Shown here: one piece after another, positions 4,420 to 43,176 of the stretch | Numbering within the stretch: the first letter of the stretch is position 1 | Layout of the letters: every line of letters starts with the position of its first letter | Assembly (NCBI GenBank): GCA_029561455.1 | Contig: JAKQIY010000064.1 | Coordinates: 53,579-117,578 of the forward strand | Origin: a bacterium | GTDB lineage: Bacteria; Zhuqueibacterota; Zhuqueibacteria; Residuimicrobiales; Krinioviventaceae | Length of the DNA stretch: 64,000 nucleotides | Direction of reading: 5' to 3' | Notes under the pieces: model-generated | Seen by the model: the letters and a program-made list of their open reading frames with translations, nothing else | Databases searched by the model: none | Told to the model about the DNA's origin: nothing | Position numbers and translations under genes: made by a program

Positions 4420-4437
4420 AATCTATCCTTTGGTTTA

Positions 4438-6146: not shown

Positions 6147-6148
6147 GG

Positions 6149-6373: not shown

Positions 6374-6391
6374 AGTTATTACCTCCTTAAA

Positions 6392-6757: not shown

Positions 6758-7139
6758 TACTCCATTGTTTTTGATGTATTTTATCAATTTTTTCCAGAAA
6801 AGCATCGAGCGCCAGTTTGTACTGCCGCAGGGATTCAGCCCACAATTGCAAGTTCTCAATTCCAAGCGGTGTAATTGTATACAGACGCTTGGCCGGGCCG
6901 GTTCCACTTGTATCCCATTGCGAAACCACAAGGCCGTTTTCCTCTAGGTGACGTAAGGTCCGGTAAATTGCTCCCGGATCACCCTGGGTTGCAACAAATC
7001 CTAATTCCGGAAGATCGGTCATTAATTCATAACCATGCCGGGGTTGCTCCCATAACATGTATAGAATTGACGGTTCAACCCAGCGGGTTTTCCGTCCCGC
7101 ATGGCAGCCGCAGCCGTGTCCAAATCCTTCTTGCATCAC
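6732..7139 (-). CDS. PadR-family transcriptional regulator
   Basis: HGYEL, GAIYRTLRHLEENGLV, GPAKRLYTITPLG wHTH signature; N-terminal GHGCGCH. Confidence 0.88.
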   Translation of the reverse strand: MMQEGFGHGCGCHAGRKTRWVEPSILYMLWEQPRHGYELMTDLPELGFVATQGDPGAIYRTLRHLEENGLVVSQWDTSGTGPAKRLYTITPLGIENLQLWAESLRQYKLALDAFLEKIDKIHQKQWSNDETGYTL

Positions 7140-23845: not shown

Positions 23846-23869
23846 CGAGTTTATTCTGCCGGTTTAATG

Positions 23870-25264: not shown

Positions 25265-25274
25265 GCGGACGTTT

Positions 25275-26444: not shown

Positions 26445-26465
26445 AAATTTTTGCGGTTTTCAATT

Positions 26466-28229
26466 CTAGTTCAATACTTTGAGGCCCAGCATGGTAATAT
26501 CGTCAGCTTGCGGCATGCCTTGGGAAAAATCTTTAACTTCAACAACTATTTTATTAATTAATTCCTGAATTTTCAAGTCATTTTTTAGCGCATATTCCAG
26601 TATTGCCTGCAGCCGCCATTCTCCATACTCCATTTCAAGTGTATTCATTGCCTCGGTAACACCATCGGTGAACATTAATAACTGGTCGCCGGGTTTCAAC
26701 TGAATCGTTTCCGTCTCATAAGTCAGGTTTGGCATCATGCCAAGCAGCAATCCGCCTTTTTCCAGGCTCATGCAGGAACCGTCGCGCCGATATAAAAAAG
26801 GCGGATTATGACCGGCATTGGCATAGGTGAGAGTAAATTCATCAATGTTAATTTCGGCATAAAAAAAGGTAATAAATTTATCAAATGTTGTATGCGCCTG
26901 GATCAGGTTATTGAGTTTAGATAAAATAGTGGTTATATCGGCTTTGGTCATGATCAAGGTATGCAGACCGGCATGTAAATTGGACATGAGCAGCGAAGCC
27001 GGTGCGCCTTTTCCAGAAACATCGCCAATGGCAATGGCAAAACGATGCTGATCGAGGCGGATACAATCAAAATAGTCGCCGCCAACTTCACGGGACGGCA
27101 CATTGTACCCCATAATTTCAAAATGATCATATTCCGGGTATGAATCGGGTAATAAACGGGTCTGAATTTCCCGGGCAATGTTGAGTTCTTCTTCCATCCG
27201 CTGTTTTTCTATGGTTTCATCAAACAAGCGGGCATTTTCAAGCGATATGGCGGCGGCATTACAAAGTGTGGCAAGGAATTCCAGATCGTCGGCAGTATAA
27301 TCGACATGGTTGATCCGTTCTCCCAATAACACAACCCCACCGGTTTTATCCTGGATGCGCATAGGTACGACCGCATTAATATTCAGGTTCCGCAAGGGAG
27401 CTAAAGCTGAGGGCAAAATGGTATCTTTAACCAGAAAGGGTTTGGTAACATCAGCCAATTCACGCAAAAGATCAGGGTCGGCAAAAACAGCCATTTCCCC
27501 GGTTTTGGTTGCACCACCGCGATAATCGGCAAAGGTCAGCTTGGTACCTTTTTTTAAAAAAATATTACAGCGTTGCGCAGCCATCTCGCCCATTATGGCA
27601 TAAACCAGCAGGTTAACGATTTTTTTCTTATCAAGGGTTGAATTCAGTTCCCGGCCTATATCAAATATCGTATTTAATTGCTGTATTTTGGTATCCAGTT
27701 TACGGTTGACACTTTCAAGTTTTTGAAAAATTATAGCATTTTCTATAGCAGTGGAAGCGAGATTGGTCAGCGAATTGAGGAATTCCAGTTCTGCTTCGGT
27801 ATAGCGGCTACGGTTAATTTTTTTGCCAAGCGCAATCATGCCAATCATTCGGGAGGTGCTGTTAATCGGCAAGATCAACTCGATACCGAGTTCGAGGAAA
27901 AAATTCTTTAATTTACATTCATTCAGATCAACATCGGTCAAAAAAACAGGTTTATCAAACCTGAATTCAACATCGCAGGTTGAATTTAACAGTTCCCGCG
28001 ACAAGCCTTTGATGTTGCGGATAGAAAATTTATTGCCGTCTTCCGAAACCATAACCAGACCCCGAGAAATCATCATCCGCCCCATGGGCGTTAGCAGCAA
28101 ATTATTGAGAATAGTATTTAACTGTAATGAAGAGTTCAGTACTTTGCTGGTTTCGAATAACGATTTTAATTCTACATGACGCTGATCCAGTTCCGAGTTA
28201 ACGATTCCAGGTTCTTTTGCGTCTTCCAT
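26466..28229 (-). CDS. Cytoplasmic GAF-GAF-SpoIIE/PP2C phosphatase (RsbU-like)
   Basis: Two GAF repeats ending AIENA/SLENA; GGDYFD, DVSGKG, TDGV, DDIT. Confidence 0.9.
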   Translation of the reverse strand: MEDAKEPGIVNSELDQRHVELKSLFETSKVLNSSLQLNTILNNLLLTPMGRMMISRGLVMVSEDGNKFSIRNIKGLSRELLNSTCDVEFRFDKPVFLTDVDLNECKLKNFFLELGIELILPINSTSRMIGMIALGKKINRSRYTEAELEFLNSLTNLASTAIENAIIFQKLESVNRKLDTKIQQLNTIFDIGRELNSTLDKKKIVNLLVYAIMGEMAAQRCNIFLKKGTKLTFADYRGGATKTGEMAVFADPDLLRELADVTKPFLVKDTILPSALAPLRNLNINAVVPMRIQDKTGGVVLLGERINHVDYTADDLEFLATLCNAAAISLENARLFDETIEKQRMEEELNIAREIQTRLLPDSYPEYDHFEIMGYNVPSREVGGDYFDCIRLDQHRFAIAIGDVSGKGAPASLLMSNLHAGLHTLIMTKADITTILSKLNNLIQAHTTFDKFITFFYAEINIDEFTLTYANAGHNPPFLYRRDGSCMSLEKGGLLLGMMPNLTYETETIQLKPGDQLLMFTDGVTEAMNTLEMEYGEWRLQAILEYALKNDLKIQELINKIVVEVKDFSQGMPQADDITMLGLKVLN

Positions 28230-28705
28230 TACACACCTTTTGCCGTGTTAACCAGACCGGGCTTTTTTTTGTCCAGGAAGTACTTAACCATACGCACCTG
28301 GTTCTGCACTCCTGGTTTAATATCATAATCAACCTCATCCATCAAAGTCCGCATTAAATAAATACCCAAACCGCCAACCTTAAGTTCAGCCAGGTATTCT
28401 TTAACATTAGGCATTTTAATAGTATCGGGATCAAAACCTTTACCGTGATCGGTAACCACCAGCGTAAATTTCTGATAGTCGATTTTTATAATCACATCCA
28501 GCGATGTGTTCTTACTGCTTTGGTCATAAGCATGTTTCATCACATTTGTGCAGGCTTCATCACAAGCCAACTCTATTTTACAAATATCGTCAGGGATAAA
28601 ACCAACTTTTTCCGCAACCTTGGCAACAAAACTTCGAATCAATTCCAGATTATCCGTATCACTCGGAATCCGAAGTTTGTATTCAGCTTTTAATTTTGGT
28701 TTCAC
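28229..28705 (-). CDS. Anti-sigma factor Ser kinase (RsbW/SpoIIAB-like)
   Basis: DEACTNVMKHAY, DHGKGFD, GGLGIYLM HATPase boxes. Confidence 0.9.
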   Translation of the reverse strand: MKPKLKAEYKLRIPSDTDNLELIRSFVAKVAEKVGFIPDDICKIELACDEACTNVMKHAYDQSSKNTSLDVIIKIDYQKFTLVVTDHGKGFDPDTIKMPNVKEYLAELKVGGLGIYLMRTLMDEVDYDIKPGVQNQVRMVKYFLDKKKPGLVNTAKGV

Positions 28706-28768
28706 CGTCGTTACCCTTATTTTTTATTATAAACATTATCATATCACTACCAACTCTACCTATTATAT

Positions 28769-28796
28769 TTTACATAAATTCCACAAAATAGTTACA
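28769..28796 (-). promoter_or_regulatory. ECF-type promoter candidate upstream of the rsbW-like gene
   Basis: Minus strand TGTAAC-N16-TGTAAA, matching the site at 31413-31440. Confidence 0.4.
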
Positions 28797-28798
28797 AA

Positions 28799-29146
28799 CT
28801 AACTCCTGAATTTTATTATAGCCAGGGTCTCATCTTCCACAATGTCATACAATGTCGGAAATCCGAGTAAATCAAAAACCCGGAAAATTTTCGGCGTCAT
28901 ATTGCTCATTTTAATATCGCCGCTATGTTCGCGAATTTGCTCTATAAAACCCATAAACACGCCTAACCCGGCGCTGCTGATATAACTGAGATCTTTAAAA
29001 TTAATTACAAGTTTATATCTTTGACCATCGATTAACTTTTGAATTGCTTCTTCAAGCTCGGGCGCCGTATGTGCGTCCAGAAAACCGCTGATATACAATA
29101 CCGAGATATCTTCTTTATCAATACGGTTTACATTAAAATTTTCCAT
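28799..29146 (-). CDS. STAS anti-sigma factor antagonist (RsbV/SpoIIAA-like)
   Basis: GFLDAHTA; LSYISSAGLG with the conserved phospho-Ser; GGAGGA RBS. Confidence 0.92.
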   Translation of the reverse strand: MENFNVNRIDKEDISVLYISGFLDAHTAPELEEAIQKLIDGQRYKLVINFKDLSYISSAGLGVFMGFIEQIREHSGDIKMSNMTPKIFRVFDLLGFPTLYDIVEDETLAIIKFRS

Positions 29147-29210
29147 GTTTCTCCTCCAGTAATCTCATTTTTATTACAAAGTAAATCATTCACTTGTTGT
29201 TTTTAACAAT

Positions 29211-31313
29211 TCAAATCTTTTTTTTATTATTCAGCGCTTTAATCACTATAAAAGTCATATCATCTGTGGCATTTTCTCCATCAAAAAATGTATATATTTC
29301 ATGAATTATACGTTTTTTTATTTCATACGCCGACAAATCTTTGGCGGCAGTAAAAACCTGGGCCAAACGTTCCTCGCCAAACTCTTCTCCCAGCCGATTG
29401 CGCGCTTCGGTCACTCCATCGGTATAGAGCAGGTAGATATACCCCTCTTGTAAAGGCATATCAACCTGCTGCAAAGTTTTCTCAAACAATATACCGGCAT
29501 CCAGACCCAGCCCTAATCCTTTCGGCTCCAAGAGTTCACATTTTTCTTCATCCGGCTTTAACATTAAAACCGGGCAATGGCCGGCGCGACAAAAAGAAAA
29601 GACTTTGCGTTTTACATCAATGATCCCGTAGATCATGCTGATAAAGGTATTGCGGTCGAAATTACGGTACAGGGTGGCATTGGTGGGAACCAGCAGGTTT
29701 TTGGGAGTTTGGTTGGCTTTGGCCAGGGCTTCCATTATCCCTTTAACTTCGGCCATATAAAAAGCCGCAGAAGGCCCTTTACCGGAAACATCGCCGATGA
29801 CCACGCCCAGGCGGTTTTTATCAATCTGGAAGAAATCATAATAATCGCCGCCCACTTCATTTGCAGTTATACAAACAGCGTCCAGTTCAATATCCGGCAA
29901 CCTGGGCATATCTTTGGGGAGCAGTTTCATTTGCGCTTCATGGGCAATCTTGAGTTCCTGCTCAAGGCGTTCTTTAACTATAGATTCCTCGACCAGACGG
30001 GTATTTTCCACAGCCACCACCGCCTGCTCACAAAAAGCGCGCAGCATATCGGCATCATCATATTCAAATCCGAATTCCACTTTTTTACCGGCATACAAAA
30101 AGCCAATGATCTCGTCTCCCATAATAAGCGGCACGGCCAACAGCGAATTTAAATCCTTTTTCCATTTACATAAATTTTTGGCAACCTGACTTTTATTGAC
30201 CTGGTTGTTTAAAAAAGGATCTTTATTATTTTTCAACCACAATGATAGCGGATCGGTAAAAGAGGGCTTGCGGCTTTTCATTTCCGCATCGCGTAAATTT
30301 TGACTGGATGCCAGTTGCAGTTCGCCGGATTTTTGATCAAGTAATTCCAGCCAGCTAAAATCAGCTTCGGTAACTTCTATTGCCAACTTAACAATGGTTA
30401 CAACCAGCTTTTCAATATCAAACTCGGAACTAACGGCGCGGCTGAGATGATGCAAAGAAGAAATTTGCCTGATCTTGCGGTCATACAACTGGGCAGTCGG
30501 TAAATGCGCCAATAGCGCTAGAAATGCTATAACCACATAAATCGTCAACAGGATTATACTGGTATCCACAAATTTTCCCAGCACCGGGCTGAATATTTCA
30601 ACCGGATTCAGTTCATGGAACTTGAAGGCAAAATATAACTGGATGGGAACCAGGAAAAAACCGCCCCAAAAACAGGCCAGTTTCTGTTTTTTATTCAGAT
30701 AATTGATCCATGCCACGCGAAACGAATTGACCACCATCAGGTTGATCAGGATAAACAAAATCACATAGCGAAATTTATCCAGCCAGTTGTTGCTCAGCCA
30801 GTTCATGTATTTAAATGATTCCGGCAAGCTGAACAAAGGATATAATAATAAAAAGATCATTAACCAGGTAAAATTCCGGGCGGTGGCTTTTTTACGTTTT
30901 ATATAGATTAAATTACGTAATGAACCCAGGGTGATAAGAACGAATATTGTGGAAAAAAAAGTCCAGGCAAGTAAAAAGAAATAATTGCCGGCATTTTCAT
31001 AGAGCTTGTTTTTTGTAAAGACATGATCATAAAAAGTGTTCAGCAGATCGTTGGACATGATCAGCAAAAAACAGGTAAAAAGGATCAGGAAAAATAATGA
31101 TCGCAGCCCCCTTAACACATTCCGGTCGGATGCCCATTTCTGCTTGTAGATCAACGGTAAGGACAGGATTAAAGCAAAAATAATAAAATATTCGCGAATA
31201 TATATAGAAGTAATCGAGTGTTCAGAATTGGAAAGCATATTCACATCCTGAACGACTGCGGCTATCAAAAGAGCTAGCGGCAACAATAAAGAAAGTTTAC
31301 TTATTTCTTTCAT
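29211..31313 (-). CDS. Polytopic membrane GAF-SpoIIE/PP2C phosphatase
   Basis: About 8 TM N-domain; GAF; GGDYYD, DVSGKG, TDGV, DDMT. Confidence 0.9.
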   Translation of the reverse strand: MKEISKLSLLLPLALLIAAVVQDVNMLSNSEHSITSIYIREYFIIFALILSLPLIYKQKWASDRNVLRGLRSLFFLILFTCFLLIMSNDLLNTFYDHVFTKNKLYENAGNYFFLLAWTFFSTIFVLITLGSLRNLIYIKRKKATARNFTWLMIFLLLYPLFSLPESFKYMNWLSNNWLDKFRYVILFILINLMVVNSFRVAWINYLNKKQKLACFWGGFFLVPIQLYFAFKFHELNPVEIFSPVLGKFVDTSIILLTIYVVIAFLALLAHLPTAQLYDRKIRQISSLHHLSRAVSSEFDIEKLVVTIVKLAIEVTEADFSWLELLDQKSGELQLASSQNLRDAEMKSRKPSFTDPLSLWLKNNKDPFLNNQVNKSQVAKNLCKWKKDLNSLLAVPLIMGDEIIGFLYAGKKVEFGFEYDDADMLRAFCEQAVVAVENTRLVEESIVKERLEQELKIAHEAQMKLLPKDMPRLPDIELDAVCITANEVGGDYYDFFQIDKNRLGVVIGDVSGKGPSAAFYMAEVKGIMEALAKANQTPKNLLVPTNATLYRNFDRNTFISMIYGIIDVKRKVFSFCRAGHCPVLMLKPDEEKCELLEPKGLGLGLDAGILFEKTLQQVDMPLQEGYIYLLYTDGVTEARNRLGEEFGEERLAQVFTAAKDLSAYEIKKRIIHEIYTFFDGENATDDMTFIVIKALNNKKKI

Positions 31314-31412
31314 TATTCACTTACTTGATTAGCATATATCTAAAAAACATTTTTTTATCGATTTACAAACCATTACTTTAATCTTTATTCATAAAGCTAT
31401 TTTCTACGAATG

Positions 31413-31440
31413 TTTACGTTTCGTGCCTATCTTTGTTACA
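31413..31440 (-). promoter_or_regulatory. ECF-type promoter candidate upstream of the membrane PP2C gene
   Basis: Minus strand TGTAAC-N16-CGTAAA (canonical AAC-N16-CGT spacing). Confidence 0.5.
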
Positions 31441-31453
31441 CACATAAAATAAA

Positions 31454-33862
31454 TCAGTTTATCCTTACAATCAGCATGGTCATATCGTCATGCTGAGCCA
31501 TGGAACCGGTAAAATCTTTGACCGATTTCTTGATCATATTTATAATGGAACTGGAGTCTTCATCCTGTATTTGCGTAATCAGGTTCTCAAGACGCTGCTC
31601 ACCGAATTCCTGGTTTTTCTCATTCATTGCCTCTGTAAAGCCGTCCGTATAAAATACAAAAATGTCACCGGATTTGATTGGAATGTTTCTTTCTTCAATT
31701 ACGGAATTAAAAATATTACCCTTATCCATGCCCAGGGCTAATCCCTGCGGGCAAATGATCTGGGTCAGGCTGGCATCATTTTTCCGATTTATTACCGGGT
31801 TATGACCCGCGCGGGCAAACGTTAACTCCATTTTTTCCAGGTCAAAAATACCATAAATCATACTGACAAAATGATTCCTTTCAACATTTTCAAAAAACAA
31901 GGAATTCATCTCGATAAGAACCTGCGACGGGGAGAGCGGAGTCCTGGTCAATGAACGTAGAAAGCCTTTTGTCAAGGTCATATAAAATGCTGCAGAAATA
32001 CCTTTACCGGAAACATCGCCAATTGCTATACCAAGTTTTTTATCATCAATTTTGATAAAATCATAATAATCGCCGCCGACTTCTTCAGCAGGATAACAGA
32101 TACTTGCGACATCCAGGTGAGGGATATTGGGCGTCGAGCGGGGTAAAAAGCTCAACTGCACACGTTTGGCAATTTCTAATTCCCGTTTTAATCGCTCCCG
32201 CTCGAATAGTTTTTTAACATGTCGGGGTGAATAACGTAATAATTCATCTCGTTCAATTACTTTTTTTAAACCTGCCAAACCCAGCATTAAGAGGGCGAAT
32301 AGAATTAAATCATAACCGATGCCATCATATAAAAATTGCCGGTTATTGAAATGTAAAAAACGCACCGATTCAAAGACCAGGATAAAAGTTACCTGAGATA
32401 CCAGCGAGGTTACAAAGTCAAAAGCCAAAAAGATAATAACATAACCTGCGCCTATACAAAAGTAATATAATATTGCTAACCATTCCGGATGGGATATAAA
32501 TTCATTAACGCCCATTCCAAATGCCCAGATAATAGCTGCTGATAGAACTATCCAGCGTCGCTTGTTGAAATATCTGGCTAAAAAAGATGATACAAATAAA
32601 ACAAAAACAAACTGTGTCCATACAATATTGGTAATGGCGGCGGTAAAACGGTAAATAAAGGGAGAATAGGAATTAAGATCGGTTACATCGCTGCTCCAAC
32701 CGGTTAAATCAACAGGAGACGACATTGAGAATATACTGATGAGAAAAGTTGAAAAACCGACCAGGATTAAACCCGACGCTAGTCCATATAAAATGGAATT
32801 GGCAAATAAACGATGCCGTACCTTGCCACGCATCAGCGCGTCAAAAGTTAGCAGTTTGTCATTCCAGGCATCACGGGTAACGGCATCGGCGCAGGCAACG
32901 GCAATAACTCCAAAAAATCCCATAAATAATGGCCCAATGATTAACCCCCCCAGAATACTTCCGGTATCCCATTGTTCAAGTTTGAGCAGAAAAGTCAGAA
33001 CCGAACATAAGATTAAAATAATGCCTGCCGGGATTGACGCTTTAATGCTGATCTCATCATTACGGATCTTTTTCAGGAGAGAAATAACATAAAGCACTAT
33101 CAATCCCACAATTACAAAAAGAGATGCAAATAAGTTAAATTCTCCATCATGGCCGGTTTGATCTTTATCCAGTTTTTCAAAGGTATACTCAAATTTCCCT
33201 ATTTGAGTACCAAGTATATCAATTTGTAATTGTACAGGAATTTGGAGAATTGCGCTTTTGCGATTGTAAAAAACCGAATAATCTACTCTTTTTTCCTGGT
33301 TTATGGTTTTAATTTTACTAAAAGCAAACAGGCTGGTATCGGCTCCCAGACGGGCAAACCACAGCGAATCGGCTATGGCGCGCGCAGCCTGCTCGCTAAC
33401 AGAAGAAGCACTGCTATCCTCGGCGGCTTCTACCCAAAAGGCAATTTCATTACCATTTTGATCATAATGAATACCAACCTGGTTAAACCATGCCGGGAAT
33501 AAACGAGTCGTATCCACAGGTGTGATATTTTTACGGTTATCCTGTTTTTTCCAGGTAACCGCCCAGTAATAAGCAGGTAATTTTTCATTAATCACCAGTT
33601 CCAGGGAATCGGCAGGGACCGATTTTTGTAAATATCGCAACAGGGCTTCACGAACCCGGAATTGTGCGGAGACCTGGTAACGGTCGTCCTCATACCCCCA
33701 CTCTAATAATGACTGGCGTGCTTTATCAATTATCTGCTGTCGGTTGAAACGGATATTGATATGGGCAGATAAATAAATTGCTTTATATTGATACAGAAAA
33801 AAAGCCAGGCCAAGCAATGCCAGAATTACCAGTAGTATATTTTTTATTGTTCTGTTACTCAT
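31454..33862 (-). CDS. Membrane SpoIIE/PP2C phosphatase with large periplasmic domain and polytopic region
   Basis: TM, ~210-aa periplasmic domain, many TMs; GGDYYD, DVSGKG, TDGF, DDMT. Confidence 0.88.
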   Translation of the reverse strand: MSNRTIKNILLVILALLGLAFFLYQYKAIYLSAHINIRFNRQQIIDKARQSLLEWGYEDDRYQVSAQFRVREALLRYLQKSVPADSLELVINEKLPAYYWAVTWKKQDNRKNITPVDTTRLFPAWFNQVGIHYDQNGNEIAFWVEAAEDSSASSVSEQAARAIADSLWFARLGADTSLFAFSKIKTINQEKRVDYSVFYNRKSAILQIPVQLQIDILGTQIGKFEYTFEKLDKDQTGHDGEFNLFASLFVIVGLIVLYVISLLKKIRNDEISIKASIPAGIILILCSVLTFLLKLEQWDTGSILGGLIIGPLFMGFFGVIAVACADAVTRDAWNDKLLTFDALMRGKVRHRLFANSILYGLASGLILVGFSTFLISIFSMSSPVDLTGWSSDVTDLNSYSPFIYRFTAAITNIVWTQFVFVLFVSSFLARYFNKRRWIVLSAAIIWAFGMGVNEFISHPEWLAILYYFCIGAGYVIIFLAFDFVTSLVSQVTFILVFESVRFLHFNNRQFLYDGIGYDLILFALLMLGLAGLKKVIERDELLRYSPRHVKKLFERERLKRELEIAKRVQLSFLPRSTPNIPHLDVASICYPAEEVGGDYYDFIKIDDKKLGIAIGDVSGKGISAAFYMTLTKGFLRSLTRTPLSPSQVLIEMNSLFFENVERNHFVSMIYGIFDLEKMELTFARAGHNPVINRKNDASLTQIICPQGLALGMDKGNIFNSVIEERNIPIKSGDIFVFYTDGFTEAMNEKNQEFGEQRLENLITQIQDEDSSSIINMIKKSVKDFTGSMAQHDDMTMLIVRIN

Positions 33863-34047
33863 TCAGCAGGTCCGGTATAGATAAACTTCAAGGTTATGTC
33901 CGGGTTTTTACCAGATCATTCTATAAAAGAGAGATTACGAACGTTAGAATAAATTTCAAATTATGAAAAAACAATTGCTAAATCAAGTAAAATATAAAAA
34001 ATTACACTATGCAAATTGTGGGCGGGAGCACTATTTACAGATATTAT

Positions 34048-34626
34048 TCAGGCGAGCAACTTGTCGTTGAACACATTTGCTGAAAAAATAAATATTTTGG
34101 TTTCACTATCCTTCCAGGCATTCATTGGCAAACCGGCTTTGCGACAGGTATGTTCAAGAAAGGTCTTTCGATCCCAACCGTTTTCGCCGGCAACCTGGGG
34201 TAATAATAAACCGCTATAAAAACCGTTTTCTATATACAGCCCATGTTCACCGGGAGTGATTTCCTCCACAGAACTGATGCGTCGCATAGGCGTTAACACG
34301 GAAATCTCAATTTCCAGGTCTGTCAATTCATCGGGGCGTACAGGGTCAAAACGCGGATCATTCAGAGCCGCGGCGCTGGCCATTTCGATTATTGTTTGTA
34401 ATAATGGCCGCACACCACGGATAAGACCGATACAGCCCCGCAGGTCATGTCTTTTATGAATAGTAACAAAAGCGCCCCGTTTCTCTGTAAATACCGGCGC
34501 TTCCAAAGTATATGATTTTGGTTTTTTTCCATTAACAACCAGGGTGATCGTCTCCCGCGCTATATTGAGCAATTGTTTTTTTTCCTCTATGCTCAAATCA
34601 GCATTATTATTTCTGTTTTCAGGCAT
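34048..34626 (-). CDS. amrA: AmmeMemoRadiSam system protein A (AMMECR1 domain), no signal peptide
   Basis: GAFVT...LRGCIG, DPRF, LLLPQV, KAGLP. Confidence 0.92.
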   Translation of the reverse strand: MPENRNNNADLSIEEKKQLLNIARETITLVVNGKKPKSYTLEAPVFTEKRGAFVTIHKRHDLRGCIGLIRGVRPLLQTIIEMASAAALNDPRFDPVRPDELTDLEIEISVLTPMRRISSVEEITPGEHGLYIENGFYSGLLLPQVAGENGWDRKTFLEHTCRKAGLPMNAWKDSETKIFIFSANVFNDKLLA

Positions 34627-34638
34627 GATTTTTCCCTT

Positions 34639-36147
34639 TTATAAAATGTCTTCGCCAAATACCTGGGTTTTATAGATCCAAAAAGAAGCACCTTCTTTCC
34701 AGGCGTTATCCGGTAATCCTGCTTTACGGCACAAACTGGTCATTTCTTCCGCAACGGTCTTCCATCCCGCTTCGAGAGGCACCTCCGGCAGATAAGTGGC
34801 GCCGTGACCCTCTTTTTGCATAATGATGCCATGCTTGCCCATTTCAAATTCATCAAGACTGTTAATCGGGTATACATTAGTTAAATAGATCGATACTTTA
34901 ATATATACATGTTCAAGCTCTTTTGCCGTTAGCGGAGGAAACCTGGGATCGCCAAATGCGGCAGCCGCCGCCATTTGCGGAACCAGTTTATAAAGCGGCT
35001 GATCCGATTCATGATGCCCAATGCAGCCACGCAGGTCGCCATTTATTGTCAAAGTAACAAAAACTCCCCGTTTTTCTTTCATCACCTCATTGAGCGGGTC
35101 AAATTCCGGAACGGTTTGGGTATCCAGATAAGATTTAATCGTGTTACGCGCCATCCGTAAAAATTCTTTTTGCGTTGCCAGGTCGATCTTGCCATATTCG
35201 ATTTTTTGACTGTTTACTCCCTTACCTGCTTTATACACGGCAACTGCGCCATAACCGACAATATAGCCGGTTTTTTTGCCGGTAACATCGCCCGATGTGG
35301 TGTGCGCCAGTTGCAGGGCTTTATCGGCGCCCAGTTTTTGAGCGGCTACCTGCATAATAACTACCGGCCCACCACCGCAGGCCTGGTAGCGATCCTCTAT
35401 AAATCCCTGGCATAATTTTTCCGGTTCTAGCCGGCTAATTGCCGCCAGAGTCGTCTTGTCGAATGATAGGCATTCCGAATATGACTCGCCATGATAGAGA
35501 TCGGTACTGGCAATGAGCAATACTTTTTTTCCTTTTACCGCTCCGGCAAGTGTATTACCGATTGCCGAACAGACAGTCCAGTCATAAGCACCAACCACTA
35601 TGGGAATAATTTTGGCATCGGGAAACACTTTTTGCACAAACGGGATCTGCACTTCAACAGCATGTTCCTGTTGTTGATGGCCGAAATTGGAACTGGTGAT
35701 ATACCGGCAATTTTTGATCAGCGCATCGGCAACAACCCGGTCAATTATTGCTTCACCCAGGGGGGTTTTATAGGCGCTGCCGGGGTATATAGTTGCGCCG
35801 TTAATTGGATCGCGATGGCTTGGCGCCAATATCACAACCAGATCAAATTTTCCGATGTCTGCGGTTTTATAACCAAACGCAGCTGTTGCAGCCGAATAAA
35901 CATAACCGGCATGTGGCACAACCAGCCCAATAATTTCTCCTTCAGGAGGCGCCGCCTGGGTATTGTCAAGTAATTGCTGTATAAATACGCTTAATTCATC
36001 GCTATCGGCAGGATAAAACATGCCGGCAACAGCAGATTCCCTTACCTTGTCATTTTTTGCCCCTGTAAGTGATATTGCAATTGAACAACACAGAAGAATG
36101 AAAACCAGGGAGTAAAGGATAGATTTCGCAGTAAACTTTATTTTCAT
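34639..36147 (-). CDS. amrB: AmmeMemoRadiSam protein B (MEMO1) fused to protein A (AMMECR1), with Sec-type signal peptide
   Basis: Hydrophobic N-terminus; AVAGMFYP, PHAGYVYS, PSH, EHAVEVQIP, STDLYH, ACG, VGYG; C-terminal LRGCIG/DPRF/YLPEV/KAGL. Confidence 0.9.
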   Translation of the reverse strand: MKIKFTAKSILYSLVFILLCCSIAISLTGAKNDKVRESAVAGMFYPADSDELSVFIQQLLDNTQAAPPEGEIIGLVVPHAGYVYSAATAAFGYKTADIGKFDLVVILAPSHRDPINGATIYPGSAYKTPLGEAIIDRVVADALIKNCRYITSSNFGHQQQEHAVEVQIPFVQKVFPDAKIIPIVVGAYDWTVCSAIGNTLAGAVKGKKVLLIASTDLYHGESYSECLSFDKTTLAAISRLEPEKLCQGFIEDRYQACGGGPVVIMQVAAQKLGADKALQLAHTTSGDVTGKKTGYIVGYGAVAVYKAGKGVNSQKIEYGKIDLATQKEFLRMARNTIKSYLDTQTVPEFDPLNEVMKEKRGVFVTLTINGDLRGCIGHHESDQPLYKLVPQMAAAAAFGDPRFPPLTAKELEHVYIKVSIYLTNVYPINSLDEFEMGKHGIIMQKEGHGATYLPEVPLEAGWKTVAEEMTSLCRKAGLPDNAWKEGASFWIYKTQVFGEDIL

Positions 36148-36289
36148 CTGTTTAACCTCATTACTTGTTAATAACCAAAAACAAATAAAGGACAGATATT
36201 ATTGTAACCTGAAACATTACGACTGTAAGCCAATAACCAATATACTATATTAACGCAATTTTGCAAACAATAAAACGACCCGCTGTTGG

Positions 36290-37432
36290 TTATTTCCAAA
36301 TACCGGCGATTTTGTAATTGCAGGTGGGACATTTAGAATCGCTGATCTTGTTTTCCAGAATCCGGAAACCAATCCGCCGCACCAGCACAGCGCCGCAGCC
36401 CGGACAATAAGTATTTTCACCGGGATCGCCGGGGATGTTGCCGGTATAAACATAATGCAAACCATTATCGAGCCCGATTTGCCGCGCGGTTTTCAGGGTT
36501 TCCAACGGCGTGGCCGGCAAGTTGGTCAACCGGTATTGAGGATGAAAACGGGAAAAATGCACCGGAACATCGGGGCCCAATTCCGTAACTATCCATTTGC
36601 ACATCTCTTTCAACTCCCGGCGATCATCGTTCTGTCCGGGGATGACAAGATAAACAATTTCCGTCCACATATTTTTTTTGCGCAACAACACCAGGGTATC
36701 CAAAACCGGCCGCAAATGTCCGGCAACCAGTTCGGTATAAAAACGTTCGCTAAAGGCTTTTAAATCAATCTTGACGGCATCGAGCACCTGGCACAGATCG
36801 GACATGGGCTGTTTTTGTATATAACCATTCGAGATCATGATGCTTTTTACACCCGGTTTGCGACCTGCAACAGCCGTATCGTACAAATATTCGGTAAAAA
36901 CTACCGGTTCATTATAGGTATAGGCAATAGAAACGCAGTGATTGTGCCTGGCCAGGGTAACTATCTTTTGCGGGGGCAGATCGAGCGATTCGATCTGTTC
37001 CGGTCGGGACTGGGATATCTCCCAATTTTGGCAAAACTTGCACATTACATTACAACCGGCAGTAGCGTATGAAAAAGCCAGGCTGCCGGGGAAAAAGTGG
37101 AACATGGGCTTTTTTTCAACCGGATCGACATGGGCGCTGCATGCTTTGCCATAAACGAGCGTATAATATACTCCCCCCTCATTCTCACGCACGCCACAAT
37201 AACCTCTCTCCAGGTCATCGATTACACATTCGCGCGGACATAACTGACATTTGATCTTACGGTTATCCAGTTTTTGATAATACCGCGCTTCGGTTTTATC
37301 TTCCAGGCCGCTACTCTGCGCCCGTGCATTTGATGTTAAGAATTTTTGCATTAAAGGAGCAGCCAACAGGCAGCCGCCGGCAGCGCAGGTTGTTTTAATA
37401 TATTGTCTTCTGCTCAGGTTCTTCATGATCAT
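36290..37432 (-). CDS. amrS: AmmeMemoRadiSam radical SAM enzyme with twin-arginine signal
   Basis: SRRQYIK Tat motif with ARA cleavage site; CQLCPREC; DPVEKKP; GCNVMCKFCQNWEISQ; YTYNEP; C-terminal CPGC/CPTC. Start at 37432 gives an ATGA overlap with the upstream stop. Confidence 0.92.
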   Translation of the reverse strand: MIMKNLSRRQYIKTTCAAGGCLLAAPLMQKFLTSNARAQSSGLEDKTEARYYQKLDNRKIKCQLCPRECVIDDLERGYCGVRENEGGVYYTLVYGKACSAHVDPVEKKPMFHFFPGSLAFSYATAGCNVMCKFCQNWEISQSRPEQIESLDLPPQKIVTLARHNHCVSIAYTYNEPVVFTEYLYDTAVAGRKPGVKSIMISNGYIQKQPMSDLCQVLDAVKIDLKAFSERFYTELVAGHLRPVLDTLVLLRKKNMWTEIVYLVIPGQNDDRRELKEMCKWIVTELGPDVPVHFSRFHPQYRLTNLPATPLETLKTARQIGLDNGLHYVYTGNIPGDPGENTYCPGCGAVLVRRIGFRILENKISDSKCPTCNYKIAGIWK

Positions 37433-38439
37433 ACCCGCACACATTCGATCTTTTCAAGATCATTGGTTCCCAGACGATGGGTTTGGTCGGCGGCAGTTGC
37501 AATATAACGTGGTTCGCGGCCGGCCTGTTTCAGGGAGAAAAGTTTTTCGGCCTTACGTTTTGTTTCCACAATGTCCCAGCAAACCTGGTCGAGCGCGACA
37601 ATATCGGTTGCTACAACCAAACTGTCCATATTCCAGCACCATTGCGGCATAAAAGGTGGTCCGCCTTCATATTGAGCGGTGATGGCATCGCAAATAATTA
37701 ACCTGGTTTTATTGCGGATTGGAGGCAGCATATTGACATCGGCGACAAAAGGATCGCCAATATTATCATGATATTTATTGGGATTATTGATAACCCCGAA
37801 ATTATTTTTCATTCCCGCAGAGAGCCCCACAATGCCATGATCTTTGAGAATCGGCAGATTAATTAATGCTGTACACATTTCGGTAACAATGCGGGTCAAT
37901 AAACTGCCAATTTGGCCATATTCGGCGATGTCCTGTGAAAATCCTACCCGGTTGTTGCCAAAACACTGTACTTTTTGCCGACCCTGATACAACGTATACC
38001 CGGCGCGTAACAGGTCGTTATCATGGCGATCCCAAATAATGATATTACTTTTGTTCACCCCCGCAGCAATCAGCCGTTCTACAACCGCGTTTACAAGTTC
38101 CGGCCGGGTCGATAATCCCTTTCCTGCCAGGCAATTGACTTTGAGACCGACAATATCTTCTGGTTTAAATAAATATCTCCAAATATTCTGGCTGTTTTGC
38201 TGAAACAGGTTTTCCAGCGCAGTATCCAGCAATTTTTGAACCGCCGCTTCATCGGGTAAATTCTGCGAGGTGCGTAAATCGTTGCGGTGTGCAATAACCA
38301 CACGCGACTGTTTTTGGCCAGCTGTGTTAGAGGGTATTGTTAATCCGGGAACGGCATACGCAGTAGCGCTACGTCTGCCCAATAATAATGCGCCACCCAC
38401 AAGCATAGTTTTTTTTATGAATTGCCGGCGTTTTTCCAA
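37429..38439 (-). CDS. DUF362 family protein with twin-arginine signal
   Basis: KRRQFIKK plus hydrophobic stretch and AYA; VGLKVNC, NLPILKDH, GMKNNFG, DIVALD. TTG start at 38439 after GAGGA. Confidence 0.85.
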   Translation of the reverse strand: MEKRRQFIKKTMLVGGALLLGRRSATAYAVPGLTIPSNTAGQKQSRVVIAHRNDLRTSQNLPDEAAVQKLLDTALENLFQQNSQNIWRYLFKPEDIVGLKVNCLAGKGLSTRPELVNAVVERLIAAGVNKSNIIIWDRHDNDLLRAGYTLYQGRQKVQCFGNNRVGFSQDIAEYGQIGSLLTRIVTEMCTALINLPILKDHGIVGLSAGMKNNFGVINNPNKYHDNIGDPFVADVNMLPPIRNKTRLIICDAITAQYEGGPPFMPQWCWNMDSLVVATDIVALDQVCWDIVETKRKAEKLFSLKQAGREPRYIATAADQTHRLGTNDLEKIECVRV

Positions 38440-38515
38440 GTATCTTTCCTCAAACAAAAAACCGCAATCGGTTATGATCACGGTTTTAAATATGGACTAC
38501 TTGAGGAATATACTA

Positions 38516-40711
38516 TTATCTGAGAAAACGTTCAACAAGTTTTTTAAATCCGGTTTTGGTAAAATCGGCTTCTTCAAAGAAATCGGACGAGGTCACATCT
38601 TCATCTTGGGTTTCATTTTGAACAGGTTTGATCTCTTCCTGGTTTATGACCGGAATTTGAGTATTTAATTGCTGCGGAGTTAGGAAAGCGTTACTTTCCT
38701 GAATAAATGCGGCGCCAGGTGCAACCTGGGGAGCAGGTTCGTTTTGCAGAGCTTCCGGTTGTTCATTTTCCAGATCCGGTTCGGGTAACGATCTCTCTTT
38801 AGCCTGTACATACATCACCCGGTTATCGATGGCGATTGCGATCTGGTTAGCCAGAATTTCCAAAGTATGCATAGTATCCAATGAAGGTAAGCGGCAATCT
38901 ACAGGATCATCGACAATTAAAAAGCCGATAATTTTTCCTTCCCGCGATTTGATCGGTACAATGATCACAGCCCAGTTCGGCCAGCAATCTGCAAAAAATT
39001 CTCCACCATCTGAACCATAATAAACACGCTTTAACGGGCGTAAAATCCGTTCTTCATTTTTCACAAAATAAGACTTGCCCAGCATATATTCTTTACGTAA
39101 CAGATTGCTGAATTCAGCAAGATCATAGTTTAACTCTTTGATTTGCGCCAGCTTTACTTTATCTTCACAAGCGACTGCTTTGGTTTCAAGCATACCGCTC
39201 TTTTTACTGATCAAAACCAGCGATACCATACTAAAATCAAGTGAAAACTTGACCGACCAGACCACCTCTTTTAATAATTCACTCAGGCTGTAATATAGCT
39301 TGAATACATTACTGTTAACCAGAATCTGTTTCATCCGCCGGTTACGACGCTCCAGTGTGGATATGCGATAATAGTTTTCCACAGTAATCGAAACAAGCCG
39401 ACTGAATAATTCCAGATTATAAAAAGTAGCTTTGGTCGGAACATTGCCAGGATGAGGTTCATCCAGCGAGATATAGCCAAAAGTACGGTTACTTTGATCG
39501 GTAAGATTCAAAATAATCAAATCACGTTTATGCCACTCCGGGATTGGTTGATTATCCAGGGAATTGTTTTGTACCAGTTCGTGATTTAAATTTGTCGTTA
39601 ACTGACGCTGTTCTTTTTTATGGTAAATAACTTTGACGTGTGATTTGTCGCTAAAGATCTTTTCCACTACTTTTTGCGGAACTTCCATAGTTTGCTGGCT
39701 AGCCGGATCTTCTTTTTCTGCATATCCAACCATTGCCTGTTTCACAAAGGCATGTTTGCGGGGGTCCAGTAACGCAACTGTAGAACGTTTAAAACCGAAT
39801 ACCTGGCATACCAGTTCAGAAAGATTTTTCAACAATACATCAATCGAATCCGTATAACTGCGATGAATAACATCGACAATTTCAGAGATCATATTTTTTT
39901 GATCGATGGAGTATTTTTGCAGAGCCACACTCGTTTTTTCTTCGGCAAGGATAATGAGATTACCGCGAAAACCAATAATAAGCTTGGGATTGGTATCGTC
40001 GTAAATAAGAGATAATTGTATACGTGCATGAGATTTTTGCCCACCCTTGTTTAACATGAAAACATCAAATGACGCGGCAGGCTTTTTAGCGGCAATATTA
40101 AATACTTTATTAAAGAAATCATTACTGTCTGTAAGCGATAAAATATCAATTATGGTTAATTCAAGCAATTCATCATTAGTATAACCGGTTACCTTTTGTA
40201 AATATTTACTTACAGAAAGAAAACGCCCTTTGCGGTCACAAACAAAATAACCGGATTCACCGCTTACCAGAGATACGGATTTTTCTTCTTTTACGGGTAA
40301 TGATGTAATTTTGTGAATGGGGGGTTGTGCCGGTTGTAATCTTTTTTTAAATTTTGCAGCGCGTTTCAGGCTTTCAGAAAGAGCGGCCAAATAACCTTTG
40401 CGTTTGATAACACATTCAAAAACACCCAGTTCCTTACCACGTATGGCGATAAAATCATCATCTTCATTTATAGTTAAAATGACCGGCAGATCATGACTAA
40501 TCTTTTTTATTGTATCACAAAATATTTCACGTTTTCCGTTTGCTAACTCGCTATCTATCAATAATATATCAAAATCAGCTTTTGTAAAATGATCAACTAC
40601 TTCCTGCAAAGTTGTCGCACCAAGCGGCAGGTAATGTTGATTTTGAACACTCAAAACCTGTCGCGTGGCTTCAACATAAGATGCGTTGGGATGAGCAATT
40701 ACTATTTTCAT
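38516..40711 (-). CDS. Degenerate receiver-PAS-GAF-GAF protein without a recognizable output domain
   Basis: Receiver-like N-terminus (DILLIDSEL) lacking the acidic pair; PAS (CDRKGRFL...TGY...EL); two GAF-like blocks ending ITVENY/IAIDNR; acidic tail. Confidence 0.75.
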   Translation of the reverse strand: MKIVIAHPNASYVEATRQVLSVQNQHYLPLGATTLQEVVDHFTKADFDILLIDSELANGKREIFCDTIKKISHDLPVILTINEDDDFIAIRGKELGVFECVIKRKGYLAALSESLKRAAKFKKRLQPAQPPIHKITSLPVKEEKSVSLVSGESGYFVCDRKGRFLSVSKYLQKVTGYTNDELLELTIIDILSLTDSNDFFNKVFNIAAKKPAASFDVFMLNKGGQKSHARIQLSLIYDDTNPKLIIGFRGNLIILAEEKTSVALQKYSIDQKNMISEIVDVIHRSYTDSIDVLLKNLSELVCQVFGFKRSTVALLDPRKHAFVKQAMVGYAEKEDPASQQTMEVPQKVVEKIFSDKSHVKVIYHKKEQRQLTTNLNHELVQNNSLDNQPIPEWHKRDLIILNLTDQSNRTFGYISLDEPHPGNVPTKATFYNLELFSRLVSITVENYYRISTLERRNRRMKQILVNSNVFKLYYSLSELLKEVVWSVKFSLDFSMVSLVLISKKSGMLETKAVACEDKVKLAQIKELNYDLAEFSNLLRKEYMLGKSYFVKNEERILRPLKRVYYGSDGGEFFADCWPNWAVIIVPIKSREGKIIGFLIVDDPVDCRLPSLDTMHTLEILANQIAIAIDNRVMYVQAKERSLPEPDLENEQPEALQNEPAPQVAPGAAFIQESNAFLTPQQLNTQIPVINQEEIKPVQNETQDEDVTSSDFFEEADFTKTGFKKLVERFLR

Positions 40712-41047
40712 ATTCCCATAATCTCCATATTCAAATAAGGGTGAATACCCTTTATAACTAGATAATTTAAAACAAGGTCCGACTACAAGTCACGTCATTC
40801 AATTTTTATCAACAAGGTAGTAATATAATGATATTATCTACAATACACAATCTAGTCTTTACCTGTCAGTGAGTACTTTTCGCCACATCCTGACATTTTG
40901 TTGCCTGCATGTCACTCCTGTATTAATTGATTACCAAAATCTCTTACAATAACCGGACATAAATTCAATAATAACAACAAAATTAAAAAGAACATTATTT
41001 CAGTATCATGAGTATAAATCAATACATTGTACGATACGCACATAAAA

Positions 41048-41066
41048 GCAAAATTTAAGCCAAAAT
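41048..41066 (-). promoter_or_regulatory. Sigma54 (-24/-12) promoter
   Basis: Minus strand TTTTGGCTTAAATTTTGC with exact GG-N10-GC spacing; near-identical copy at 45570-45588. Confidence 0.65.
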
Positions 41067-41292
41067 CAAAATACTAAAAATTTATTAAATTAAAAAACAC
41101 AGGATAGCAAACAGCCTGACAAGTGATAATTTAATAAAAAACATGACTAGTAAAATTATGAATACCTGAATTATATCATATCACTAAAACAAATAGGTTC
41201 TTATATAATAATGAGCGGCGAAACATAAACCTGATACGAATATGTAATAGTAGAGACTGCAGATATGTAACAAGAAATCAGGAGTATTCTTG

Positions 41293-41321
41293 TTGCTTTT
41301 TTTAAGAAATATGTTTATCAT
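41293..41321 (+). promoter_or_regulatory. Sigma70-type promoter for the KamA-like gene
   Basis: TTGCTT-N17-TATCAT. Confidence 0.45.
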
Positions 41322-41379
41322 TCATTAGAGACAAGACAATATACGATCTGAATTATTCATTTGATCAAAGAGTACAATT

Positions 41380-43176
41380 ATGAATTATAATAAAAAAAAT
41401 ATTGACCGATTTTTTTCCATTAATCCTACCATTTATAATTTGTTAAATGATGCAGAAAATCCGCTCATGGCAAAAAACTTTTTAAAAGTTTATATAGATG
41501 AAATGATCAATATATTGCATCGAAATAATCGCACAATTCAACCTCTGGAATGGTCCTTGCAAATGAATTGTTTGCAAACCTTTAGAAGAATAATCTCGGT
41601 TCGCAGTCAAAAATTAACCAAATTCAATATTGTCAAATTATTATGGCATTTAGCCAAAGAAAATATCAAAAAATTACCTGATGACTTGAACGATGGATTT
41701 TTTGAAGAGATGAGCCGCTTGTTTGCCGGAATGCTTGGTAAAAGCGGTATCTATAATGACGATATGATAGCCGGAAATGTCAGGTTAAAAGGACGGGACG
41801 CAGCCATTGACCGCTCTGAACGATTAGATGAAATGGCGTTAAAAGCGCAAAAGATCATCAGAAAATATAAATGCGGTCTGGACGAATCAATAATCAAGCT
41901 CAGGCAGGAAAATAAAAAAAGAATTTTGAACTATTTTAAAGCAACTGATGCGGAATGGAATGATTATCTATGGCAAATTCGTCATGTTATCAGAGATGCA
42001 AAGAAACTAGGCGAACTGGTAGAATTAACCGGTGAAGAAATAAAAGCTATAGAACTGGCCCGCAGCAATAACTTGCCGTTTGGAATTACACCTTATTATG
42101 TTTCCCTTATGGATAAAACTCCGGAAAGGACTGCCGATCATGCGATCAGAGCACAGGTAATACCACCTTTGGATTATGTAGAAACGATTATTGCGTGTAA
42201 GCAGGATCCATCTTATAGCTTTGACTTTATGCTGGAAAATAATACTTCTCCTGTGGATATTGTTACCCGCCGGTACCCGATGATCATTATTATTAAACCC
42301 TATAATACCTGCAGTCAGATATGTGTGTATTGTCAACGAAACTGGGAAATCAATGATGTTTTGGTGCCTCATGCTCTGGCATCCACAGCAAAAATTGACC
42401 GGGCAATTGAATGGGTAAAAGAGCATAAAGCAGTAACCGAAGTCTTGGTTACCGGGGGCGATCCCCTGGTAATGAAAGACGATAAAATCAATGAAATTCT
42501 TGCAAAGCTCTCTGCCATAAAACATGTTGAACGTATACGCATTGGGTCACGAACACCGGTGGTTCTTCCGCAACGGATAACCAATGAACTAATCAATACA
42601 ATTGCGCACTATCATCAACCAGGGAAAAGAGAAATTATACTCATTACCCATTTTGAACATAGTTATGAAATCACTCCCCAAGCAATGCAGGCGGTTCAAA
42701 AATTCAAAACCAGAGGCATGTCCGTATATAACCAGGCCGTATTTACCGTTGAAAATAGCCGCCGCTTTGAACTGGTAGCCTTACGGAACAAACTTAGATT
42801 AATTGGTGTTGACCCATATTATACCTTTAATACCAAAGGAAAGGAAGAAACCAAAAAATACCGCGTACCTCTGGCCAGGTTACAGCAAGAAACCAAAGAA
42901 GAAGCTCGTTTAATGCCGGGTACGGTAAGGACTGATGAGCCGGTATATAATGTTCCAGGCTTGGGTAAAAACTATATCAAAGCCCAACAGCACCATAGTT
43001 TACTTACAATTTTGCCGAATGGGAAGCGGGTTTATGAATTTCATCCCTGGGAAAAATATTTGTCGTTATCCAATACTTTTATTGATATTGATGTTTCAAT
43101 TTATGATTATTTGCAGGAAATGAAAAAACGTGGTGAAAATATTAAAGATTATCAATCAATCTGGTACTATTATTAG
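41380..43176 (+). CDS. KamA-family radical SAM/PLP aminomutase-like protein, long form
   Basis: ITPYY, RRYP, CSQICVYCQR, TGGDP, RIGSRTPVVLPQRIT, THFEH, PYY, VPGLGK (PLP Lys). Confidence 0.9.
   Translation: MNYNKKNIDRFFSINPTIYNLLNDAENPLMAKNFLKVYIDEMINILHRNNRTIQPLEWSLQMNCLQTFRRIISVRSQKLTKFNIVKLLWHLAKENIKKLPDDLNDGFFEEMSRLFAGMLGKSGIYNDDMIAGNVRLKGRDAAIDRSERLDEMALKAQKIIRKYKCGLDESIIKLRQENKKRILNYFKATDAEWNDYLWQIRHVIRDAKKLGELVELTGEEIKAIELARSNNLPFGITPYYVSLMDKTPERTADHAIRAQVIPPLDYVETIIACKQDPSYSFDFMLENNTSPVDIVTRRYPMIIIIKPYNTCSQICVYCQRNWEINDVLVPHALASTAKIDRAIEWVKEHKAVTEVLVTGGDPLVMKDDKINEILAKLSAIKHVERIRIGSRTPVVLPQRITNELINTIAHYHQPGKREIILITHFEHSYEITPQAMQAVQKFKTRGMSVYNQAVFTVENSRRFELVALRNKLRLIGVDPYYTFNTKGKEETKKYRVPLARLQQETKEEARLMPGTVRTDEPVYNVPGLGKNYIKAQQHHSLLTILPNGKRVYEFHPWEKYLSLSNTFIDIDVSIYDYLQEMKKRGENIKDYQSIWYYY

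Follow-up and report, generated by a model that had tools for sequence, protein, structure and literature searches.

An operon encoding a predicted exported paralogue of the AmmeMemoRadiSam system, with a twin-arginine leader on its radical SAM enzyme

We examined a stretch of 64,000 nucleotides (the window) from a bacterium of the Zhuqueibacterota (GenBank assembly GCA_029561455.1, contig JAKQIY010000064.1, positions 53,579 to 117,578 of the forward strand) and focused on an operon at window positions 34048 to 38439. It encodes the three families of the AmmeMemoRadiSam system (AMMECR1, Memo, and the radical S-adenosylmethionine [SAM] enzyme AmrS) together with a DUF362 protein. Judged from its sequence, the operon appears to be an exported paralogue of that system, in which cluster-loaded AmrS would leave the cytoplasm by twin-arginine translocation (Tat) and the system would work at the outer surface of the inner membrane or beyond it; we put the probability of this reading at about 0.6. 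The radical SAM superfamily is among the largest known for enzymes, and its members are regarded as confined to the cytoplasm, since they depend on SAM and a low-potential reductant and their clusters must be protected. The AmmeMemoRadiSam members first described are leaderless and, implicitly, cytoplasmic. If the reading is correct, an oxygen-sensitive radical chemistry that is otherwise known from the cell interior alone would extend to the cell envelope.

The operon and its export leaders

The operon consists of four open reading frames (ORFs) placed head to tail on the minus strand. The DUF362 gene (37429..38439) comes first and encodes 336 residues, counted from a TTG at 38439, that score 71.3 bits against PF04015 (gathering threshold, 24 bits); the ESM Atlas neighbours of the protein are DUF362 clusters throughout. 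The amrS gene (36290..37432) encodes 380 residues with 405.5 bits against TIGR04337 (cut-off, 220 bits). Its ATG at 37432 overlaps the DUF362 stop codon as ATGA, the coupling that an earlier note on this DNA had described. AmrS falls below the cut-offs of two models for glycyl-radical enzyme activases (PFL-AE type), with 58 bits against TIGR02493 (231.75) and 38.8 bits against TIGR02494 (174.35). A spacer of 142 bases (36148..36289) separates amrS from a Memo-AMMECR1 fusion gene (34639..36147; 502 residues), in which the Memo part scores 186.6 bits and the AMMECR1 part 166.2 bits, and which reaches 237.8 bits against TIGR04336 (cut-off, 26) and 157.3 bits against TIGR04335 (cut-off, 99). The last gene, a lone AMMECR1 (34048..34626; 192 residues), starts 12 bases after the fusion gene, scores 192.2 bits against TIGR04335 (cut-off, 99 bits), and is 37% identical to the fused AMMECR1 domain. 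Genes for the Memo-type protein B (TIGR04336) and the AMMECR1-type protein A (TIGR04335) thus adjoin amrS.

The earlier note had seen twin-arginine signals at the starts of DUF362 and AmrS and a hydrophobic Sec-type signal on the Memo-AMMECR1 fusion, and all three are present. The DUF362 leader (approximately residues 1 to 29; 38353-38439) carries KRRQFIKK, then a hydrophobic stretch ending in RR, then AYA. The AmrS leader (approximately residues 1 to 38; 37319-37432) consists of SRRQYIK, a weakly hydrophobic stretch, basic residues, and ARA. The Memo-AMMECR1 leader (approximately residues 1 to 30; 36058-36147) has a lysine-rich tip and a far more hydrophobic stretch ending in TGA. Mean Kyte-Doolittle values of the hydrophobic (h-) regions were 1.45 for AmrS, 1.93 for DUF362, and 2.44 for the fusion, and each leader is followed by a small-x-small cleavage site (ARA, AYA, and TGA, respectively, all assigned by eye). 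The AmrS leader passes the TAT signal model TIGR01409 (cut-off, 16.7 bits), with 18.4 bits in the whole protein and 22.9 bits on its own. The genome encodes TatC (245.6 bits) and two TatA/B/E proteins (74 and 68.3 bits). The lone AMMECR1 has no leader at its N terminus, so that three of the proteins carry leaders and not all four.

Each leader lies downstream of every usable start. The DUF362 TTG is preceded by the ribosome-binding site GAGGAAAG and followed by the KRRQFIKK motif, and the longer frame from a GTG at 38481 would begin inside a terminator-like hairpin (38458..38487, minus strand; 12-pair stem, then a T run; found by consensus scan only) between DUF362 and the next gene upstream. 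For these reasons, we consider TTG 38439 the best DUF362 start. The three candidate ATGs of amrS (37444, 37432, and 37426) are all upstream of SRRQYIK.

The catalytic features of the enzyme are retained. The radical SAM motif CX3CX2C (C127/C131/C134) is invariant in 64 aligned AmrS sequences, and further four-cysteine groups lie near both the N and the C terminus; the invariant columns are R8, R9, C62, C65, C79, C127, C131, C134, C343, C346, C368, and C371. The claim that the His/His/His/Cys-type residues of MEMO are present held in part: the His/His/Asp-His residues of the fusion align with those of human MEMO1 over residues 36 to 222, while the Cys lies outside the alignment and was seen only as an ACGGGP motif.

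Conservation of the leaders

We sampled the 120 nearest AmrS homologues (61 to 100% identity) and scored a leader where RR and a hydrophobic stretch occurred within the first 40 residues. A leader was found in 112 of the 120; five of the remaining eight are N-terminally short calls and three have variant motifs, and a looser pattern matched 115. The consensus over these 115 leaders is S/T-R-R-x-F-I/L-K, and a median of 37 residues separates the RR from the EARYY strand that opens the catalytic domain. All six arginine codons occur at the RR positions of AmrS across 21 loci, which indicates that selection acts on the protein. Of 120 DUF362 homologues, 109 have the RR leader, and the 11 without it are mostly sequences with late starts. 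R4 and R5 of DUF362 are invariant among 62 aligned sequences. It is important to note that both alignments (64 AmrS and 62 DUF362 sequences) were hand-picked from hit lists and are mostly full-length, and the invariant arginines therefore add little beyond the counts. Loss of the signals in homologues, which the earlier note had named as a ground for dropping its reading, is not what we found. The names of the nearest homologues point to candidate division KSB1.

The h-regions of the AmrS leaders are unusually rich in cysteine, which makes up 6.9% of residues, is present at least once in 111 of the 115 leaders, and peaks at +8/9, +11/12, and +14 from the first arginine; the corresponding contents are 2.9% in DUF362 leaders and 1.7% in 86 Tat-like leaders of the genome. 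We rejected a lipobox reading because these cysteines lie 8 to 14 residues past the first arginine, ahead of most of the hydrophobic stretch. As a separate observation, the only other ORF of the genome that combines a Tat-like leader with CX3CX2C encodes a 219-residue DUF3795 protein (G000 C13:5207-5866; L105:1208-1867), and its leader also contains cysteine.

Related loci in other genomes

A simple heuristic served to sort 80 related loci, all from named public genomes. AmrS is of the Tat type in 25 of them, and in three more (L037, L061, and L062) the leader is a weak or an RK variant. Memo genes occur in 19 of the Tat-AmrS loci, and each of the 19 encodes a Memo with a hydrophobic or Tat-like N terminus, which bears out the suggestion that a signal-bearing Memo accompanies Tat-AmrS; the lone AMMECR1 is leaderless in each of the seven related loci that have it. 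The proposed co-occurrence with DUF362 is looser. This gene precedes amrS in 12 of the approximately 28 Tat-AmrS loci, ten of which are titled KSB1 or "Cytophagia," one Zixibacteria, and one "Eubacteriales," and its product bears the RR pattern in 11 of the 12 (nine by a stricter rule). DUF362 is thus a lineage-specific partner.

Other lineages showed other arrangements. Planctomycetota loci have Tat-AmrS alone, and Geothrix loci have a plain leaderless trio. In Spirochaetota and one Bacteroidales locus, Tat-AmrS accompanies a lipoprotein-like Memo-AMMECR1 and a large membrane protein of 774 to 806 residues with a spermidine-synthase-like (Spermine_synth) domain (L052:6996-9320 and L076:3527-5947). 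Enzymes related to this domain make use of a SAM derivative, and the nearest relative of the protein in our genome, on contig C61, is 25% identical. Loci titled KSB1 or "Cytophagia" are syntenic for an upstream regulator, which in 10 of them lies on the same strand directly upstream of DUF362, for a divergent KamA-family gene, and for downstream SpoIIE genes; these loci are close relatives, and their synteny therefore says little about function.

A detached form of the leader was also observed. There are 24 loci in which Memo comes after a leaderless AmrS, and in 19 of these the gap holds a small ORF of 53 to 88 residues with RR and a hydrophobic stretch (small RR ORFs in the AmrS-Memo gap: L040, L047-L051, L054-L056, L065, L066, L069, L071, L077, L080, L083, L084, and L086-L088). 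In two more of the 24, the same RR element is fused to the front of Memo. The AmrS proteins of the split-leader loci begin just after the EARYY strand and so do not include it. Nine of the small ORFs align with the N termini of the window AmrS and of that of L021, from the RR through an A-x-aromatic-aromatic strand, with R8, R9, and A49 invariant among the 11 sequences, and the small proteins often end in W/L-A-G. Apart from the generic Tat model, which accepts only 1 of 12, they have no match in Pfam or NCBIfam. The small ORF looks like a detached AmrS leader. In our reading, the retention of a Tat leader plus first strand, either fused or as a neighbour, points to selection for Tat targeting of the enzyme, and we infer that the small protein might carry AmrS across the membrane by strand complementation.

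Phylogeny and fusions of AmrS

From a search of 1.84 billion cluster representatives, we took the best 150 matches and kept the 135 that cover the domain (15 fragments were dropped). They include 31 with Tat-type leaders (four of them RK/KR or weak variants assigned by eye), four with other hydrophobic N termini, and 13 with N-terminal fusions. A FastTree phylogeny of 142 rows (the 135 representatives, the window AmrS, a second AmrS of this genome termed AmrS2, and five KSB1 sequences) placed all 37 leader rows in one half of the tree (59 rows); the other half, to which AmrS2 belongs, comprises 83 rows, none of them a leader row. We also built an IQ-TREE phylogeny of 95 rows, subsampled to 32 of the 67 plain rows, 6 of the 18 C-terminal fusions, and all others, on which the label "leader, anchor or membrane fusion" requires three changes. 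A tree uniting the 53 leader, anchor, or membrane-fusion rows was not rejected (log-likelihood 11.8 better than the free quick tree; p-AU in the approximately unbiased [AU] test, 0.62). The leader-bearing branch includes records titled KSB1, Zixibacteria, Planctomycetota, Spirochaetota, and Bacteroidales, and split leaders occur in many more. In one representative, P0184, the radical SAM domain is interrupted by an intein that has a LAGLIDADG domain.

Several representatives in the leader half are fused to other modules. AmrS is joined to DsbD_2 in P0128 and P0134; to DsbD_2, FMN_bind, and the NapH-like Fer4_5 in P0133; to FMN_bind and Fer4_5 in P0135 and P0137; and to an N-terminal helix and FMN_bind in P0160 and P0166, where an SGAT motif is present and no second helix precedes the enzyme. 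Behind a signal-like helix, it is joined to a beta-propeller in P0129, to CBM_11 in P0136, and to Memo and AMMECR1 in P0154. FMN-binding domains flavinylated at [S/T]GA[S/T]-like motifs, NapH-like PF12801 proteins, and DsbD are parts of extracytosolic electron transfer, as set out in the account of these systems by Meheust et al. 2021 (PMC8238504). The fusions suggest how an outward-facing AmrS could be reduced. More broadly, radical SAM chemistry may be catalysed beyond the cytoplasmic membrane by a whole phylogenetically coherent branch of AmrS, which Tat would deliver by means of a fused or separate leader and which DsbD-like, NapH-like, or flavinylated modules would supply with electrons; this is a tentative proposal, to which we give slightly less than even odds.

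The DUF362 partner

DUF362 had been proposed as substrate, electron donor, or cofactor partner of AmrS. The donor role is unlikely: among the 62 aligned homologues, only C103 and C189 are near-invariant cysteines and there is no cluster-type cysteine motif, which argues against an iron-sulfur electron donor. The invariant positions are occupied by Lys, Asn, Asp, His, and Gly and not by clustered cysteines. Searches of the PDB with the single sequence and with a profile returned nothing meaningful. The C-terminal HRLGT was considered as a glycyl-radical-like site and rejected since two DUF362 paralogues unlinked to AmrS have similar LG tails.

The genome has 12 DUF362 paralogues. By a heuristic, five of the 12 have Tat-like leaders, and by our reading of the sequences, seven have C-terminal tails similar to type IX secretion sorting domains; in one paralogue, ferredoxin-type cysteine motifs are fused to the protein. 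Based on these leaders and tails, the DUF362 family appears to be largely extracytoplasmic in this genome.

A leaderless set in the same genome

The genome also encodes AmrS2 on another contig (G000 C84:374456-375448; L006:8442-9461), a leaderless protein of 339 residues that is 49% identical to the window AmrS. A leaderless Memo2 lies at C4:92441-93250 (L008), a third Memo-like gene lies elsewhere, and the only two AMMECR1 domains of the genome are those of this operon. Across the order, 32 of 41 genomes have at least two AmrS matches, typically one long and one short open frame, and AMMECR1 occurs as an adjacent fused-plus-lone pair in 25 of the 41 and as a single copy in 16. The lone leaderless AMMECR1 probably stays in the cytoplasm and serves the leaderless AmrS and Memo encoded elsewhere. 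This assignment is no firmer than likely because some genomes of the order have two AmrS copies yet no lone AMMECR1. One genome thus offers a natural pair of systems for comparison, one putatively exported and one probably cytoplasmic.

Proposed mechanism and alternative explanations

In the mechanism that we propose, AmrS would receive its iron-sulfur clusters in the cytoplasm, cross the inner membrane folded through Tat, and be cut after ARA. DUF362 would also take the Tat route, either because it carries a cofactor or simply because it is pre-folded, and the Memo-AMMECR1 fusion would be exported through Sec. The three proteins might then act jointly on an envelope-located substrate, either in the periplasm or on the outer surface of the membrane. 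In relatives, reducing electrons could arrive through the membrane modules fused to the enzyme (DsbD-like proteins, NapH-like iron-sulfur proteins, or flavinylated FMN-binding domains). SAM might be co-exported bound to the enzyme, be regenerated as a cofactor, or be brought by an exporter. The proposal thus raises a concrete question, that of SAM outside the cytoplasm, and if it is correct there would be a novel route bringing SAM to the periplasm, or SAM would serve as a regenerated, co-exported cofactor. It would also offer a way into the Memo/AMMECR1 pair, long without an explanation and with homologues linked to human disease, and would point to a membrane or envelope substrate.

A number of observations weigh against export of an active enzyme. 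Neither SAM nor a low-potential reductant is known in the periplasm, and no electron-transfer module adjoins the operon in this genome. The DUF362 leader scores 13.5 bits against TIGR01409, under the cut-off, and the cysteine-rich h-region of the AmrS leader is atypical. Sec-like or anchor N termini ahead of the radical SAM domain (P0129, P0136, and P0154) fit poorly with loading of clusters in the cytoplasm, and in the triple fusions P0146 and L073 the helix is followed by basic residues, a hint that the enzyme faces the cytoplasm. In the trees, the basal branch that divides the two halves has a local support of just 83, and the result of the AU test amounts to consistency and not proof because the group was named after the first tree had been seen. 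Finally, the RNA evidence comes from one gene in one run: an activated-sludge library (run X3) gave two short contigs inside the fusion gene, 100% identical to 34722-35074 and 35399-35596, which is weak evidence and too little for expression of the operon. Matches in a DNA run (X4) were limited to fragments of 95 to 99% identity, and another DNA run (X1) gave none.

We weighed three other explanations. The radical SAM step could take place in the cytoplasm before export, with AmrS modifying DUF362, itself, or another Tat cargo and then leaving in an inactive or structural form, so that no SAM chemistry would occur outside. This explanation would remove the problem of SAM and reductant supply, it agrees with the translational coupling of amrS and DUF362, and it has a precedent in the maturases HxsB and HxsC, which act in the cytoplasm on the periplasmic effector HxsA (PMC13128918). 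In precedents of this type, as described there, the enzyme is leaderless, whereas here the leader is on the enzyme itself or on a small dedicated protein. DUF362 is moreover missing from over half of the Tat-AmrS loci, and the fusions of relatives to outward-facing electron-transfer modules would make little sense for a spent enzyme. We therefore regard modification before export as unlikely. Somewhat more doubtful still is the idea that the leader is no working export signal and instead anchors AmrS at the membrane (without being cleaved, or on the inner side) or binds a cytoplasmic factor, while the enzyme acts from the cytoplasmic side on a membrane substrate. Membrane association is a theme of the family, and the basic residues after the N-terminal helix in the triple fusions, the weak hydrophobicity of the AmrS h-region, and its atypical conserved cysteines at +8 to +14 would all suit a tether. 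The motif is nonetheless a textbook Tat consensus that passes TIGR01409, and a small-x-small site follows it. In addition, Memo-AMMECR1 has a Sec- or lipoprotein-type signal wherever AmrS has a leader, and a cytoplasmic AmrS would have the membrane between it and its partner.

An annotation artefact, in which translation would really begin after the RR motifs and every protein would be cytoplasmic, is very improbable, and we consider it largely refuted already. The AmrS leader does have an in-frame Met close to its end (residue 28 in the 380-residue form), and shorter N termini are called in 5 of the 120 AmrS homologues. Neither fits well with a leader that is kept at the protein level while its codons turn over synonymously, with the ribosome-binding site before the DUF362 TTG, or with the existence of leader and EARYY strand as a separate ORF elsewhere.

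Other genes and elements in the window

Directly upstream of DUF362 lies a gene for a response-regulator/PAS/GAF protein (38516..40711, minus strand; Pfam Response_reg, PAS_9, and GAF), which might regulate the operon. The spacer between amrS and the fusion gene has promoter-like hexamers at 36267-36239 and 36229-36201, which are consensus matches only, and in some related loci this spacer is 16 bases or an overlap. An Rfam scan of 33800-41500 gave no family match. PADLOC gave just weak viperin echoes of the radical SAM core and no match to a defence-system family.

The divergent gene at 41380-43176 (plus strand) encodes a KamA-family radical SAM protein (TIGR00238, 334 bits) with an N-terminal extension of approximately 190 residues that has no Pfam match, and it is syntenic in six related loci. 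On the minus strand, 21863-33862 holds a dense partner-switching cluster with five SpoIIE-type phosphatases, a STAS protein, and a HATPase_c_2 kinase; several of the phosphatases have GAF, HAMP, or receiver domains and two have large membrane domains. A B12-binding radical SAM gene lies inside this cluster at 23870-25264. Three ParA/NUBPL-type P-loop proteins (two with ferredoxin inserts) and two Nitro_FeMo-Co (NifB/X-like) domains are encoded at 3196-6931 (minus strand) and may constitute an iron-sulfur cluster carrier set. At 17811-18587 (minus strand) is a SAM hydroxide adenosyltransferase (SAM_HAT_N/C), a SAM-cleaving enzyme with no evident link to the operon.

Comparison with known systems

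Like the canonical AmmeMemoRadiSam system (TIGR04335/TIGR04336/TIGR04337), the window operon has all three families adjacent and far above their cut-offs, and the CX3CX2C motif and the flanking cysteine groups are likewise kept in AmrS. Unlike the canonical system, it has export leaders on the enzyme and on the Memo-AMMECR1 fusion and adds a DUF362 protein that bears a Tat leader; AmrS and Memo are also encoded elsewhere in the genome in separate, leaderless form, and the leader-bearing AmrS proteins cluster apart on the tree. Our full-text literature searches turned up no paper on such an exported variant and no radical SAM enzyme described as carrying a Tat leader or as a Tat substrate; the main comparative paper on Memo-AMMECR1-radical SAM systems, Burroughs et al. 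2019, may bear on this.

The nearest solved structure by sequence is pyruvate formate-lyase activating enzyme (PDB 3c8f, TIGR02493; E value of 1.1e-10 over AmrS residues 121 to 273), with which AmrS has the radical SAM core in common. AmrS differs from it in being under the TIGR02493 cut-off, and thus a non-member, and in having no evident glycyl-radical partner. DUF362 belongs to the same Pfam clan (CL0471) as the N-terminal domain of LarA, in the LarA/DUF2088 lactate-racemase superfamily, by the clan assignment given in PMC11770544, yet it has no match to solved structures at the level of sequence. With the flavinylation-linked extracytosolic electron-transfer systems (PMC8238504, whose main text contains no mention of radical SAM, Memo, or AMMECR1), the close relatives of AmrS share fusions to the same module types, whereas the window operon has no such module.

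A further parallel is with Tat-exported iron-sulfur proteins. In these, of which the small subunits of hydrogenases are an example, a twin-arginine leader is likewise found on a protein that needs to be loaded with iron-sulfur clusters in the cytoplasm. The separate leader protein of the AmrS relatives is in turn similar to the small "formate dehydrogenase region TAT target" protein TIGR02811, of which it shows a weak echo.

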